Shown here: positions 30,800 through 37,349 of the stretch, one piece after another | Layout of the letters: every line of letters begins with the position of its first letter | Position numbering within the stretch: the stretch's first letter is position 1 | Source: an uncultured Verrucomicrobiae bacterium | GTDB taxonomy: Bacteria; Verrucomicrobiota; Verrucomicrobiia; Chthoniobacterales; JAFAMB01 | Reading direction: 5' to 3' | NCBI GenBank assembly: GCA_963813025.1 | Contig: CAWEXO010000008.1 | Location: forward strand, 128,001-192,000 | DNA: 64,000 nucleotides | Notes under the pieces: model-generated | The model's database searches: none | What the model was told of the DNA's origin: nothing | Seen by the model: only the letters and a program-made list of their open reading frames with translations | Made by a program: the position numbers and the translations under genes

Positions 30800-31534
30800 A
30801 TGATGACAACCAACTTAGAAAATCCGAGAATTGTGTCCCGAGACGAATGGCTTGCGGCTCGTACAGAGTTACTTGCCAAGGAAAAGCAATTGACGCGTCA
30901 GCGCGACGCGCTCAATGCCGAGCGCCGCAAGCTGCCTTGGGTAAAGGTCGAGAAGAATTACGCGTTTGAGGGAGTCAACGGCAAGGAAACGCTCGCCAGC
31001 CTCTTCGCGGGAAGAAGCCAGCTCGTTGTGTATCATTTCATGTTCGGTCCGGACTGGGCCGCCGGCTGTCCCGGCTGCTCCTTTCTGGTCGATCATATCG
31101 ACGGGGCCCTGCCGCACCTGCAACATCATGACGTCACGCTGGTCGTGGTATCGCACGCCCCGCTCGCCAAGATCGAGGCTTACAAGGCACGCATGGGTTG
31201 GCGGTTCCCCTGGGTGTCGGCTTTCGGCAGCGACTTCAACTATGACTATCATGTCTCCTTTACCAAGGACGAACTAGCGTCCGGCAAGGTCTTCTACAAT
31301 TTCCGAGAAACCGACTCCGCCGACGCGAACGACGAGCTGCCGGGTCTCAGCGCCTTCTATAAGAATGAGGCCGGCACCGTCTTTTATACCTATTCCACCT
31401 ATGCCCGCGGCGCCGAGGAGTTGATCGGCACTCTGATGATGCTCGATCGCGCGCCGAAGGGACGCAATGAGACAACGACCATGGATTTCGTCCGCCGCCA
31501 TGACGAATACGAAGAACCTGCCAAAGACGCATAG
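30800..31534 (+). CDS. DUF899 thioredoxin-like protein
   Basis: RRKLPWV, YHFMF...CPGCS, SDFNYD, TYARG. Confidence 0.9.
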   Translation: MMTTNLENPRIVSRDEWLAARTELLAKEKQLTRQRDALNAERRKLPWVKVEKNYAFEGVNGKETLASLFAGRSQLVVYHFMFGPDWAAGCPGCSFLVDHIDGALPHLQHHDVTLVVVSHAPLAKIEAYKARMGWRFPWVSAFGSDFNYDYHVSFTKDELASGKVFYNFRETDSADANDELPGLSAFYKNEAGTVFYTYSTYARGAEELIGTLMMLDRAPKGRNETTTMDFVRRHDEYEEPAKDA

Positions 31535-32078
31535 CTGTTGCCTGGGACGTAGGGCGCGACTGCCTGGTGCGTCAGCTCCCCGATACGGACCTGGCCGGGG
31601 TCGGTCGGACTTCCAAGTAGCGGCTGCATCCCGGCGGTTCAAAAAGGCGACAAGCTGGAAGCTTATTTGTGTGCACGGTTAATTGGGGACAGATCACGCT
31701 TGTAAAACGCGGACGGGGACCCGGTCTGTCGGACTTTGGGCAATCTGTAGCGCGCGCAATCGAGCTACGGTTTGGAAGAGAGGGTCGAGGGATGTCTCAA
31801 GGCGTGTTTGGTCCTGTGGCGGTAGGGCGATCCGCCTTGGCGGACGAGCGCCAGGCGAGAGCTTGTTTGACGTGTCCGCCATATCCTTGGCGAAGGCGGA
31901 GTCATCCTGGAGCGGGTGGCTCATCCAAGCGTCCGGCTCAAATAAATTTTCGTATAGCAAGTCCGGAGTTATTCAGCAAGCTGTGGTCGGAGGCCCTACC
32001 GGTCGGAGCTCCAGCTTGTGAATAACTCCGCCCGGAGAAAAGAAAGCTTTGGAAAAAAGAAAGGGTTTTCTTTGCCAA

Positions 32079-32285
32079 GGGCAGTCGGGCAAAATCCCGC
32101 GCTGCCCACGCGAAGAAGGACGCGCCGGCTGGCTACGAATAGGATTTTCGGGTCCGCGAGATCTTTAGGGCAGAGTTTCGAGCCAGCCGGTCGCGCTTTG
32201 ATTCGTCACAACGAATACTCTAGTTGAGGTCGAGCACTTCACACTTCGACGACTTAACTATACGGATTTCGGACGGCCAAAGCCA
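32079..32285 (+). ncRNA. Candidate IS110 bridge RNA
   Basis: 5' hairpin GGGCAG...CTGCCC, then two stem/internal-loop/stem units sharing ACGAATA and TTTCG; loop 1 carries TAGGGCAG, complementary to the right flank. Confidence 0.65.
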
Positions 32286-32330
32286 AGCGGCTTTTTTCGC
32301 GCTGGGTAAAACCAGAAAAAAGGAGCAAGC

Positions 32331-33605
32331 ATGAACCGATCAAATCCGTTTCCGGTCCCAGATCCCCATTATATGGTCAGCGTGGGAATCGATTGGGCTG
32401 ATAAAGAACACGCTGTCTGTCAACGCTCTGGTCCGGAGGGAGGATGCCGGACATTCCAGCTGGGCGCCGATCCCGTTTCGGTTCGGACCTGGCTCGAAGA
32501 GCTCAAAAGCTTGGCTGGTCCGCAGGGGCGGGTGGCCATTGGTTTTGAACAAAATCGGGGAGCACTCTTTGAAATGCTCCGCACCCAGGGAGACTGGATC
32601 GACCTCTATCCGCTCAATCCTTTGAGTTTAAGCGAATACCGCAAGGTCTTCTTTACTAGTGGCGCCAAGGATGACCCTCGCGACAGCCAATTGATCGAAG
32701 AGCTCGTTGATCACCATCGGGATCGGCTCCGGCTTTATCAACCCCCGGAGCCGGTAGTGCGGGAACTGGATTTGCTCGGTCAGCACCGACGCAAAGCCGT
32801 CGAGGCCTCCGTGGTGTGCGAAAACCAACTCACCAGCTTACTCAAAGTCTACTATCCGCTGGCCCTCGAGCTCCTCGATGATTTGGGCACCACTCTGGCG
32901 CTGCATTTTTTGAAACGCTGGCCGACCCTGCAGAGTTTAAAAAAAGCCAAGCCCCAGACCCTGCGCTCTTTTTTTTATCAGCACCACAGCCGCAGCCAGA
33001 GCTTGATCGAGGAGCGCTTGGAAAAGATTGCTCGGGCCCAAACCGTCACCGAGGATCGTTCTCTGCTGGAGCCCTCCGTGCTGAGTTGCAAGTGTTTGGT
33101 CAGTCAATTGTTGCCGCTGCGAGATTCCATCAAGGCTTTTGACAAAGCCATCCACACTCTGTTTGCCAAACATCCCGATCGGCACATTTTTGAAAGTCTG
33201 CCCGGAGCCGGCCCGCAATTAGCCCCGCGCTTGTTGGTGGCTTTTGGCTCCAATCGGCAGGCTTTTGCCCAAGCCCTGGAGGTACAGAAAAAAAGCGGAA
33301 TCGCTCCGGTCCAAGTGCGCAGCGGCCAAACCAAAAGCGTCCAGCGGCGGCGCTTTCGCTCCAAATTCCTGTGCCAGAGCTTCCACGAATTCGCGGCTCA
33401 TTCCATTCCTTATTCCCAATGGGCCAAGCTCTATTATCAAGAGCAAATGGCCCGCGGTAAGTCCCACCACACTGCCGTGCGCGCCTTGGCCTTTAAATGG
33501 ATCCGCGTCATCTTCCGGCTCTGGCAGGACCGCACCCCTTATGACGAAGAGCGCTACCTCCAAGTCCTCAAAAAACGCCACTCACCAATCGGTGAAAAAC
33601 TTTAA
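32331..33605 (+). CDS. IS110 family DEDD transposase/recombinase
   Basis: VGIDWADKEH, GFEQ, AKDDPRDS, SLPGAG, SGIAPVQVRSG; AGGAG RBS. Confidence 0.95.
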   Translation: MNRSNPFPVPDPHYMVSVGIDWADKEHAVCQRSGPEGGCRTFQLGADPVSVRTWLEELKSLAGPQGRVAIGFEQNRGALFEMLRTQGDWIDLYPLNPLSLSEYRKVFFTSGAKDDPRDSQLIEELVDHHRDRLRLYQPPEPVVRELDLLGQHRRKAVEASVVCENQLTSLLKVYYPLALELLDDLGTTLALHFLKRWPTLQSLKKAKPQTLRSFFYQHHSRSQSLIEERLEKIARAQTVTEDRSLLEPSVLSCKCLVSQLLPLRDSIKAFDKAIHTLFAKHPDRHIFESLPGAGPQLAPRLLVAFGSNRQAFAQALEVQKKSGIAPVQVRSGQTKSVQRRRFRSKFLCQSFHEFAAHSIPYSQWAKLYYQEQMARGKSHHTAVRALAFKWIRVIFRLWQDRTPYDEERYLQVLKKRHSPIGEKL

Positions 33606-33785
33606 CTTTTTCCCTTGCCAGACCTGCTCAGATACTGCCCTACCGCCGCAGGACAGTGCGGCATTCTGAGACGATCTCTGGCGCTCGCGCGACCCAAATT
33701 GGTGGCGTGCTACAGATTTCCCGAGTCCGACAGGCCGGAGGCCGTCCGCGCTACGGCAGGCCTTGCAATCGCCCTTGGCCGCGCT

Positions 33786-36700
33786 TCAGCCGACTGGGCG
33801 GCCAAATCCTCCGCCGCCTGGCGTTTCGATCACGATCGCATCGCCGCTTACCACATCGACCTGAGCGCAACCGGCGAGCTGTTCGGTCTCGCCGGTAGCT
33901 CGGATGACGGAGTTTCGACCGGTCGCCCCCGATTGACCACCATCCACTCCGAACGGTGGGACGATGCGGCTGCCCGACAGGATCGCTGCTTGCATCGGTT
34001 CGCGAAAAACGATTTTGCGGATAACGCCATCTCCTCCGTTCCATTTGCCACAACCTCCGGAACCTTCGCGGATCCGGAACTCCTCGACGACGACAGGATA
34101 GCGCAGCTCCAGGATTTCCAGATCGGTCAGGCGCGAGTTCGTCATGTGCGTATGAACGGCGGAGGCCCCGGGAAAGCCAGGACCCGCGCCGGCCCCGCCG
34201 CAAACCGTTTCATAATACTGGTATTGACTGTTGCCGAAGGTCAGGTTGTTCATCGTACCCTGGCTTCCCGCCATGATCCCGAGCGCACCGACGAGGGCGT
34301 TCGCCAGCGCTTGCGAAGTCTCGACATTCCCGGCGACAACGGCCGCCGGCCAGCGCGGATCCAACATACAGGCGGGTGGGACGATAATCTGGATCGGTTC
34401 GAGACAACCGTCGTTCAAAGGGATGTCCCGGTCGATCAAGGTCCGAAAAACATACAGCACCACCGCGCGCACAATCGCGCGAGGCGCGTTAGTATTATCC
34501 GGTTGTTGGGCGGAGGTGCCGGTAAAATCCACTTTGACGCGCCCGCCTTTTCGATCAACCTGCACGTGAATCTCTGCTCCGGTATCCGTCCGCTGAATGA
34601 ATTTTCCCACATTAAGCCGGGAAACGATCGACTCGACCTCCTTTGCCGCATTGTTGAAAACATGTTTGGTGTACGCTTCGACCGCCGCGACTCCGTAACG
34701 CTCGACGATTAACCGCATTTCGTGTACACCCCGGGCATTGGCGGCGAGCTGCGCCTGAATATCGCCGAGATTTTGCCGGGTGTTCCGCGCGGGAAACGGT
34801 CCTTTCTCGAGAGCTTCGATAAAAGCTTTCTCCTGAAAGACTCCCCGCGCTAGCAGCTGGAGGTCACCGACGAGAACACCTTCTTCCCCAATGGTCTGGC
34901 TGAACGGCGGCATCGAGCCAGGCATGCTTCCACCGATATCGGCGTGATGCCCCCGGCTAGCCACCCAGAAGGCCGGCTTTCGTGTCTGGCAGAACACCGG
35001 GCTGATTACCGTCAGGTCCGGCAAATGCGTGCCGCCGGCGTACGGGTCGTTTGAAAGGTAAGCGTCACCCAGCTCAACCGAACGGCCGTGCTTGGCAATG
35101 ATTGCCTGGACAGCGGCGCTCATCGATCCCAAGTGCACCGGGATATGCGGCGCGTTCGCAATCAGCCGGCCGCCTCGATCGAAAACGGCACAGGAATAAT
35201 CCAGTCGTTCTTTGATGTTCACCGAATAAGCGGTGTTCTGCAGAACTACTCCCATTTGCTCGGCGACAGCGACGAAAAGGTTATTGAACAGTTCGAGCAG
35301 AACCGGATCCACCGCGCTAGTTACGGCGAAGGTAGCTGCTCTTGACCGCAACCGTTCCAGGATCAGGTCACCGTTTCCGGCGATCTCGGCGCCCCAGCCG
35401 GGTTCAACGACAGTGGTTGAATGGTTCTCCGCAATGATCGCCGGTCCCTCAAGCCGGGCTCCCGACATCAGCTCGTCCCGGGGATATATCGGGGTTCGCC
35501 GCTCATGGCCCTGAAACGTCACGTCAGCAAAACGGATCTGCTCCTGGCGGGCCGCCGGATTCCAGGAAGGTACGACCTGGGGTGGTTCGCCGATCATTTC
35601 GACTTCAATCGAATCCAGGATCAGGGCGCGCTCCGGCATCACAAATCCGTACCAGCTCAAATGACGTTGCCGGAAGATTTCCGTTGCTTGATCGACAGTG
35701 CTTGCTTCGACCGCGATCGAACTATCGCTGCCCTCGTATCGCAAATAGACACGGCGCGCGACTCTCGACGAAAAGAGCGCCTCCTGCGAAAGATCCTCCG
35801 CAACAGCTTGTTCGAGGAGAGAAAATTCGCTTGTCAGGGCAGCCCAGTTTGACTCTTCCAAAGCCTTCTCGATCGTCTTTTGACGGAGCGCCCGCACCTC
35901 CGCCGCACCGATGCCGTACGCCGACAAGACACCGGCCAACTGCGGGACCATTACGCGGTTGATTTCCAGCCCGTCAGCAACAGCAGTGGCGTGTTGACCT
36001 GCGGCGCCACCAAATGCGACCAACGTATAGCCCCGGGGATCGCGGCCCTGGGCAAGCGTAATTTTCTTAATGGCGTTTACCATGTTGTCGACCGCCACAC
36101 GCAAAAACCCTTCGGCTACGGCCAGCGGATCCCAACCCGACAGTTCGGCGCATAAACTGCGCAACCGGGTAAACACAGCGTCGCGGTCGATTGGCTGATC
36201 TCCGCTCCGTCCAAAGACCTTCGGGAATAAGTCCGGTTGAAGACGACCGAGCGCCACGTTGCAGTCCGTGACCGTCAGTGGACCGTTTTTGCGATAACAG
36301 GCCGGCCCGGGTTCCGCGCCGGCGCTAGCAGGACCAACCCGAAAACGCGCCCCATCGAAGTGGCAGATCGAGCCGCCGCCCGCCGCCACGGTATGAACTT
36401 GTAACATGGGCGCCCGAATACTGATCCCGGAAATCTCCGTTTCCATCGCTCGCTCATACTCTCCGGCAAAGTGCGACACATCGGTGGACGTACCACCCAT
36501 ATCGAACCCAATGATGCGAGTGATTCCAGCGGCCCGGCCAGTCTTCACTGCACCCACCACGCCTCCAGCCGGACCGGAGAGTATCGCGTTCCTGCCATGA
36601 AACACCGAAGCCTCGGCCAAACCTCCATTGGACTGCATAAATCTCACTCGAACACCCGGAAGCTCCCGGCGCACGTGCTCGATATACCGGCGCAGAATCG

Positions 36701-37349
36701 GCGAAAGGTAAGCATCCACGACAGCCGTCTGACCACGGGGCACGAGCTTAATCAGTCCGCTCGCCTCGTGGCTCTTTGAGATCTGCGCAAAACCAATCTC
36801 ACGCGCGACATCAGCTACCCTGTTCTCGTGCTCCGGGAATCGGAAACTGTGGGCCAACACAATGCTTACGGACCGAAACCCATCTTGAAAAGCCGTTTGG
36901 AGAGTTCGCTTTGCTGCGTTCAGATCGAGCTCAACCAGGACCTCACCGGCAGAAGTTATCCTCCCGGCGATTTCGGCCACCCGGGACCAGAGCTGCTCGG
37001 GCAACTGAATAGCTCGATCAAAAAGCCGGGGCCGCTGCTGAGTGCCGATCCGCAGAATATCCCGCAGACCCTGGTTCACGAGCAACAGAGTGGGTTCGCC
37101 TTTCCGCTCTAGCAGCGCGTTCGTTGCGACTGTCGTGCCGATCCGAACCTCGGCAATCTCCTCCAACGGGATCGGCAATTCAGGGACGAGGCCGAGGATC
37201 GTGCGAATTCCGGGGATCGTGGCGTCCCGGAAACGGCCCGGGTCCTCAGAAAGAAGCTTGGCGGTTTTCAATGTGCCATCAGGCGCGCGGCCGACGATGT
37301 CTGTAAATGTTCCGCCTCGATCGATCCAGAATTGCCACACCCGAAGCAC
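33786..37349 (-). CDS. 5-oxoprolinase / hydantoinase A+B fusion
   Basis: [49 protein letters not shown]. Confidence 0.95.

Follow-up and report, generated by a model that had tools for sequence, protein, structure and literature searches.

An IS110-group insertion sequence with a predicted bridge RNA and a possibly unshared crossover core in an uncultured Verrucomicrobiae genome

Does the structured, non-coding left end of an IS110-family insertion sequence (IS) encode the RNA that selects its insertion site, and at which bases of that site would the element recombine? Both questions are raised by a locus in an uncultured Verrucomicrobiae bacterium (GenBank assembly GCA_963813025.1), lying within a 64,000-nt stretch of contig CAWEXO010000008.1 (positions 128,001 to 192,000, forward strand) that we refer to as the window and whose own numbering is used throughout. 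An initial annotation, made from the letters of the window without database searches, had placed an IS110 element at 32026..33642 and proposed a bridge RNA with a guide matching the flank of its own insertion. Our analysis bears out the outline of that proposal: the locus very probably carries an IS110-group element that combines a DEDD/Ser recombinase with a predicted bridge RNA whose guides match both the target and the ends of the element. It also moves the left end and revises the donor guides and the core.

The ends were fixed by comparing copies of the element with uninterrupted copies of its target. The source genome (16 contigs, 4.42 Mb) contains 10 full copies with 98-100% identity, each of which interrupts a repeat at one and the same position, TTTTCG^CCCTACC. 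At the left junction every copy reads AATTTTCG followed by TATAGCAAG, with TTTTCG preceding TATAGC; at the right junction the copies read CTCAGATACT, then G in nine and A in one (copy C4), then CCCTACC, and one copy (C16) lacks a single A in the right end. Accordingly placed, the element in the window is a 1685-bp IS110-family insertion sequence at 31953-33637 on the plus strand, or at 31952-33636 if the G common to donor and target (33637) is assigned to the left side. The right end of the initial annotation was essentially correct, whereas its left end lay 73 nt too far inside. The target bases AATTTTCG and CCCTACC are invariant across the 10 insertions, and the uninterrupted 13-mer TTTTCGCCCTACC occurs 143 times exactly in the genome against 0.135 occurrences expected; it is embedded in a longer conserved repeat unit, and long paralogous repeats run uninterrupted through it. 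The target is an abundant short repeat; that it belongs to the repetitive extragenic palindromic (REP) sequences, as had been proposed, is at most a possibility. Furthermore, in one contig from a soil metagenome position 31951 is followed by 33637, with exactly 1685 bases skipped. Target duplication amounts to one G at most, and none of the 21 inverted pairs listed joins the IS ends TATAGC... and ...GATACT as terminal inverted repeats. The non-coding left end measures 378 nt (31953-32330), the right end extends only 32 nt past the stop codon, and the bridge RNA span 32113-32300 shows zero variation among the 10 copies. The IS110-group insertion sequence so delimited (31953-33637) is intact and has been active recently.

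The left-end RNA (31960-32300) has a fold z-score of -5.29, and its predicted fold accommodates a bridge RNA of some 190 nt (32110-32300), with a target-binding and a donor-binding arm. In each predicted arm an outer helix and a conserved CGAA/UUCG pairing lead into an internal loop, which is followed by an inner hairpin. The stems first seen by eye recur in this fold, GCGCCGGCTGGCT (32122-32134) pairing with AGCCAGCCGGTCGC (32181-32194) and TAGTTGAG (32221-32228) with CTTAACTA, which we locate at 32253-32260; the motifs ACGAATA (32135 and 32211) and TTTCG (32176 and 32267) that both loops contain turn out to be the conserved CGAA/UUCG pairing. The general picture of an IS110 element with a two-loop left end and an abundant-repeat target is upheld by the protein models, the fold and the 143-copy repeat.

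In the scheme published for the bridge RNA of IS621, left guides carry the top-strand sense of the left half-sites (as described in PMC11208160), and candidate guides of the corresponding sense are present in the window element (coordinates in Table 1). On the 5' strand of the target arm, ATTTTCG has the sense of the left target and would pair with the bottom strand of that target; the match, called weak at first, is exact over 7 nt with the left end corrected. On the opposite strand of the loop, TAGGGCAG is the exact reverse complement of CTGCCCTA, as initially observed, and this 8-nt match can be placed on the right junction because the 10 copies and the uninterrupted repeat agree. Six of its nucleotides match the empty target (GCCCTA) and all eight match the post-insertion junction, namely CT as the final two bases of the IS, the shared G (33637) and five bases of the flank, CCCTA. 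The 8-mer match taken alone is only suggestive; by our own estimate, chance would account for about 0.06 such matches when any 8-mer of a 300-nt arm may match within 20 nt of junction. In the donor arm, CTATAC(G) complements the IS left end on its top strand and would pair through 6 nt with the donor (plus a possible G-T wobble) and through 7 nt with the exchanged strand, while ATACT has the sense of the IS right end. Of the two donor guides put forward earlier, ATACT stays a candidate, the weakest of the four guides, and CGGA gives way to CTATACG; the donor junction GATA-CT-CCG that they had been said to fit does not exist.

We also compared the element with its relatives. A protein-guided scan of one genome per species yielded 25 loci, mostly in Planctomycetota, Acidobacteriota and Verrucomicrobiota assemblies, and the RNA comparison covered 13 of them together with the window element (14 sequences). 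The loci left out were L021 (truncated, the same as L022), L026 (the same RNA as L025), L042 (truncated RNA), L036, L040 and L043-L045 (partial genes), and L037-L039 and L041 (32-36% identity, with left ends lacking the ACGAA/TTCG motifs). RNAalifold on a plain MAFFT alignment recovered 15 pairs in the target-arm outer helix, 12 of them with compensatory changes that include a G-C for A-U swap within the CGAA/UUCG pairing. Minimum free energy (MFE) folds of the 14 regions show, in our reading of the structures, the target arm followed by the donor arm in most cases; a script that parsed the arms from these folds misassigned 3-4 of the 14 and served only as a rough count of closing helices. Pair counts for the donor arm and the closing helix P1 on MAFFT alignments were dropped because bulges shift the register, and duplex energies were used instead (n = 12, two near-duplicates dropped). 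Cognate strands gave -21.8 kcal/mol for the target-arm helix versus -8.2 kcal/mol for non-cognate combinations, and -13.6 versus -6.2 kcal/mol for the donor-arm helix.

The candidate guides themselves follow the flanks of each element. The longest identical run between the left guide and its own flank is 5-10 nt in 8 of 11 relatives, with a cognate mean of 6.1, compared with a mean of 2.4 and a maximum of 5 among non-cognate pairs (n = 102, close relatives left out). The right guide is identical to its own flank at 7/7 positions in seven of the 11, at 6/7 in two, at 5/7 in one and at 1/7 in one (L028), against a non-cognate mean of 3.1 identities of 7; for this comparison the right junction of the relatives was set 4 nt past CTCAG (3 nt in the window and L023), a choice of our own. 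The dinucleotide of the right donor guide likewise tracks the left junction of each element, reading CG, TT, AA or CT. Even between close sister elements the correspondence is visible, as L022 and L023 have G for A at one left-guide position relative to the window and their flanks differ likewise. Guide positions thus vary with the flanks, while the surrounding ACGAA and TTCG motifs remain fixed. Since the guides track the relatives' own flanks at the same structural positions, the matches extend beyond a lone 8-mer.

We then considered the bases at which strands would be exchanged. In the window, the empty site reads TTTTCG+CCCTACC, the left junction TTTTCG+TATAGC and the right junction ATACTG+CCCTACC. 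Donor and target have only one G in common; before it the target carries TC and the donor CT, so that the CT core of the initial annotation is not shared (target TC-G, donor CT-G). Readings that nevertheless treat CT as a shared core were tried and rejected, each predicting a junction that is not observed. A CT core common to donor and target is described as invariant for IS621 (PMC13626964), and one relative, L029, is IS621-like in this respect, with an empty site ...GCCGTCC CT CCGGGAC... in its own genome and CT at both junctions. In IS621, the handshake principle, by which guide bases pair with non-cognate DNA, concerns positions 6-7 (PMC11208158; also PMC13626964). The window element has the same feature, its right target guide gaining the donor CT (8 versus 6 nt) and its right donor guide gaining the target C (7 versus 6 nt); judged from these letters, the handshake appears to be shifted into what the IS621 work calls the invariant core.

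All junctions keep the letters of the top strand (10 of 10 left junctions and 9 of 10 right junctions, with the single A variant, together with those of L022 and L023). No junction shows swapped letters, which would be expected in about half of the insertions if both strands were exchanged with a two-base stagger and then replicated. We tentatively propose, as a serious possibility rather than the probable case, that in the lineage of the window element, L022 and L023 donor and target lack a core dinucleotide in common, that the core-binding guide bases pair only with the exchanged top strands, and that only the information of the top strand is inherited. The junction pattern would fit the proposal, made in preprints on CazIS110-1 (10.1101/2025.10.25.684509) and on single-strand exchange by IS621 (10.64898/2026.08.31.748434), that IS110 insertion or excision moves mainly one strand. 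The same pattern could also result from one-base or blunt exchange, or from biased repair. A limited literature search found no description of a natural case of an unshared core like this one. If true, the proposal would lend genomic evidence to a disputed route of IS110 transposition, by copy-out and with the top strand only.

An ordinary two-base core of the IS621 type would account for these junctions if the target had been misinferred, the element having entered a rare variant of the repeat, or if the junctions had mutated later. Rare variants do exist in the genome (TTTTCACCCTACC 3 times, TTTTTGCCCTACC 4 times and TTTTCGTCCTACC twice), and copy C4 has A for G at its right junction. The extra-base variant TTTTCTGCCCTACC, however, occurs 0 times, all 10 left junctions read TTTTCG and then TATAGC, the sister elements L022 and L023 have the same junction letters in other assemblies, and the long paralogous repeats pass through TTTTCGCCCTACC without interruption. 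We consider this explanation very improbable.

The protein is consistent with the assignment of the element. The initially reported open reading frame (ORF) of 424 aa at 32331-33605 on the plus strand was recovered unchanged, and it matches PF01548 (DEDD_Tnp_IS110; 74.2 bits, cut-off 29, residues 18-176), PF02371 (C-terminal Tnp domain; 35.8 bits, cut-off 21.3) and the NCBI model NF033542, 'IS110 family RNA-guided transposase' (148.4 bits, cut-off 140). Among solved structures only the recombinases of ISCro4 (E 2e-6) and IS621 (E 8.7e-6) were matched, weakly and in the C-terminal domain only, with S331-G332 aligned to the ESG motif of both chains. Residues D21, E73, D115, D118 and S331 are invariant in 11 of 11 sequences (the window protein and 10 relatives with 29-69% identity, 425 columns). 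The four acidic residues are spaced (52, 42, 3) much as those of IS621 (D11, E60, D102, D105; PMC11208158), and from this spacing we infer that D21, E73, D115 and D118 may be equivalent to the IS621 catalytic residues. The protein is indeed longer than that of IS621, as had been pointed out (424 aa against a solved chain of 328 residues), which is unremarkable because 10 relatives of similar length align over the 425 columns.

By analogy with IS621, the element would leave as a circle whose joined ends rebuild a promoter, TTGCCA-17 nt-TATAGC, that would drive both the RNA and the recombinase; the RNA-protein complex would then pair the circle with the target and exchange strands. Next to the shared G, the bases of the two top-strand guides match the exchanged strand and not the cognate one, which should favour insertion. 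In 11 of 11 right ends a TTG-type hexamer precedes CTCAG by 5-7 nt, and a junction promoter is plausible from these motifs.

Several observations weigh against the bridge-RNA interpretation and its IS621-like mechanism. The left donor guide matches over only 5 nt in the window and 4 nt in L023; in distant relatives, an 8-9-nt identity (CTCAGATG and variants, with GGTG in L024 and GGGC in L028 matched on both sides) connects the 5' strand of the donor arm with the right end, and this stretch lies partly within the predicted inner stem, its end being 3 nt away from the core. Three of the 11 relatives (L024, L028 and L034) fail the left-guide test and L028 fails the right-guide test as well, while the covariation at the left junction is partly circular, except for the window and L029, in that the left junctions of the relatives were located by the right donor guide. 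The shared CT core of IS621 is absent. The candidate -10 hexamer TATAGC lacks the usual final T, and a promoter scan of the linear left end returned no sigma-70 site on the plus strand and one match on the minus strand. A search of the assembly for the circle junction gave 0 matches, in keeping with a transient form, and neither it nor a tandem form was found in contigs from two sequencing runs, which cannot show rare forms. Of the four sequencing runs listed, two contain part of the stretch, and none of those listed as containing it is an RNA run.

The weakness of the left donor guide could also be taken to mean that the left end is a mere structured 5' leader or regulatory region, with matches that are coincidental or protein-binding sites. 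An Rfam scan of 31500-34000 found no curated family, only three sub-threshold chance matches (mir-223, MAT2A_D and Histone3), which leaves room for such a leader. Yet the guides of the relatives change with their flanks around fixed ACGAA and TTCG motifs, the strand sense of each guide fits the scheme described in PMC11208160, and the stems covary, which makes a leader of this kind very improbable. Extremely improbable is the idea that the matches are a captured fragment of the target repeat, that is, DNA homology from past recombination: a hairpin loop does hold GCCCTACCGG, a 10-nt copy of the right target, and CGAATAGGATTTTCG at 32136-32150 does resemble the repeat consensus CGAATAAATTTTCG, but the guides are not collinear with the target (one has the same sense, the other is reverse-complemented, and a hairpin lies between them), the arrangement recurs in relatives with unrelated targets, and L022 and L023 lack the GCCCTACCGG copy.

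Two of these resemblances may be described more fully. The loop copy of GCCCTACCGG (31990-31999, in the long 5' hairpin) has the same sense as the right target and may be due to chance. The resemblance to CGAATAAATTTTCG, the consensus to the left of the target, comprises the left guide and the conserved CGAAT at the closure of the target loop, and extends over 13 of 14 positions with one extra base; it is not seen in L023 and is possibly fortuitous as well.

Individual relatives also showed particular features. L028, from a Burkholderiales metagenome-assembled genome (MAG), carries AA at both junctions (~924 and ~2471), and AA is also what both of its top-strand guides read; neither target guide is matched by its flanks (a 3-nt run and 1/7 identities), and it looks like an insertion at a non-cognate site. 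L024, from a Pyrinomonadaceae MAG, has junctions at 905 and 2481 with the dinucleotides TT on the left and AT on the right; its right donor guide reads TT and its right target guide AT, and it may represent another lineage in which the crossover bases of donor and target differ. It is a single copy, and a search of its genome for an empty site found none. The target of L029 (genome G001, L047-L055) is the loop of a short palindrome, GTCCC...GGGAC, in a repeat present on many contigs. The 13-nt target motif of the window element occurs 7 times in the genome of L023 (G003), where the control count was 1, and 0 times in that of L022 (G004).

Within the source genome, the copies on contigs C11 and C13 (2 of 10) have the first 13 nt of the left end (GTATAGCAAGTCC, window 31952-31964) tandemly doubled. 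The doubled unit ends in TCCG, resembling the TTCG of the target, and our guess is that an insertion into a resident copy was followed by recombination between the two copies. A solitary left-end fragment (L011, C1:207767-207986) retains only the first ~217 nt at 98% identity; it retains the left junction as well, which accounts for the 11 occurrences of this junction in the assembly. The element in the window is flanked by imperfect inverted repeats (31700-31830 and 33637-33760, with 31811-31828 and 33637-33654 being 94% complementary), and the target repeat is therefore present here as an inverted module pair. The neighbouring long ORFs, 30800-31534 (plus strand, 244 aa) and 33786-37349 (minus strand, 1187 aa), look like ordinary chromosomal genes. 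A single 151-nt contig from one of the two sequencing runs covers 32028-32178.

Table 1. Features of the IS110-group element and its target repeat, in window coordinates.
Feature	Position	Strand	Remarks
Left half of target repeat	31907..31952	+	Last 8 nt, 31945-31952 (AATTTTCG), identical at 10/10 sites
Left target (LT), ATTTTCG	31946-31952	+	Part of left flank
IS start, TATAGC (right donor, RD)	31953..31958	+	Relatives begin TATAG, TACAG or TATTG
-10-like hexamer TATAGC of candidate junction promoter	31953..31958	+	Putative promoter role
Long 5' hairpin	31964..32030	+	Predicted; present in L022 and L023 too
Two more hairpins, 32034-32076 and 32079-32107	32034..32107	+	Prediction only
Bridge RNA core	32110..32300	+	Predicted fold; closing helix P1 32110-32123/32287-32300 around both arms
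Target-binding arm	32124..32191	+	Outer helix 32124-32134/32181-32191, CGA 32136-32138/TCG 32178-32180; RNAalifold, helix energies
Left target guide, ATTTTCG	32144..32150	+	Equals flank 31946-31952, exact 7 nt
Right target guide, TAGGGCAG	32166..32173	+	Reverse complement of CTGCCCTA, 33635-33642
Donor-binding arm	32195..32283	+	Outer helices 32195-32207/32272-32283, CGAA 32212-32215/TTCG 32268-32271, inner hairpin 32221-32260; predicted fold, helix energies
Candidate left donor guide, ATACT	32215..32219	+	Equals right end 33632-33636; weakest of the four guides
Right donor guide, CTATACG	32258..32264	+	Reverse complement of left junction CGTATAG, 31951-31957
U-run, possible weak terminator	32292-32297	+	Within the bridge RNA core
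IS110-family recombinase gene, 424 aa	32331..33605	+	Catalytic candidates D21, E73, D115, D118, S331
-35-like hexamer TTGCCA	33615..33620	+	Putative; a single G linking the ends would leave 17 nt between it and TATAGC
Right end, CTCAGATACT (left donor, LD)	33627..33636	+	CTCAG motif conserved in relatives
Right half of target repeat	33638..33694	+	CCCTACC, 33638-33644, identical at 10/10 sites

How does the element compare with known systems? With its predicted bridge RNA, it is an IS110-group element of a kind already known, and its closest counterpart in layout is IS621 of E. coli, as described by Durrant et al. 2024 (PMC11208160) and Hiraizumi et al. 2024 (PMC11208158). The two share a DEDD/Ser recombinase and a left-end RNA upstream of the gene with two internal loops, whose 5' strand carries a guide (only a candidate in the donor loop of the window element) with the sense of the left half-site and whose 3' strand carries one that complements the right half-site; in both, core-adjacent bases pair with non-cognate DNA in a handshake and the target is an abundant repeat. 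The placement of a -35 element in the right end and a -10 element in the left end, joined on circularisation, would be a further likeness, the promoter of the window element being a putative one. The proteins are only distantly similar (E 8.7e-6, C-terminal domain). In predicted layout, the window element differs by its 378-nt left end, with three additional hairpins on the 5' side and a closing helix that encloses the two arms, and both of its loops are closed by the conserved CGAA/UUCG helix. Donor and target have one G in common and no CT core.

The insertion of every copy into one conserved repeat also recalls ISPpu10 of Pseudomonas putida, all of whose insertions lie in copies of one conserved intergenic repeat (10.64898/2026.03.19.712850). 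According to the same source, a target-encoded stem-loop acts as a second specificity determinant of ISPpu10, and the palindrome-loop target of the relative L029 is reminiscent of these stem-loop targets. For CazIS110-1 (10.1101/2025.10.25.684509) and in the single-strand work on IS621 (10.64898/2026.08.31.748434), a copy-out route with insertion of the top strand only has been proposed, and the uniform junctions of the window element, known from sequence, are as this route would lead one to expect. Elements of the IS1111 group with a seekRNA belong to the same recombinase superfamily and share RNA-guided targeting of repeats. In that group the RNA lies downstream of the gene and the inverted repeats are subterminal; the window element, unlike them, has its RNA upstream and a right end that reaches only 32 nt past the stop codon.

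Collectively, the locus adds to these systems a soil bacterium's element with a predicted bridge RNA that is clearly delimited and was recently active, with ends, target logo and guides fixed by 10 copies and 143 empty sites and with its closest relatives in Verrucomicrobiota, Planctomycetota and Acidobacteriota assemblies. Its clade suggests that the RNA scaffold can exceed that of IS621 in size, and in the window element donor and target would need to share at most one base at the crossover. Interest in the element rests mainly on this unshared core: if it holds experimentally, the common-core design rule for bridge recombinases would be relaxed, and the unlike bases would offer a built-in strand marker to decide between single-strand and double-strand exchange models.

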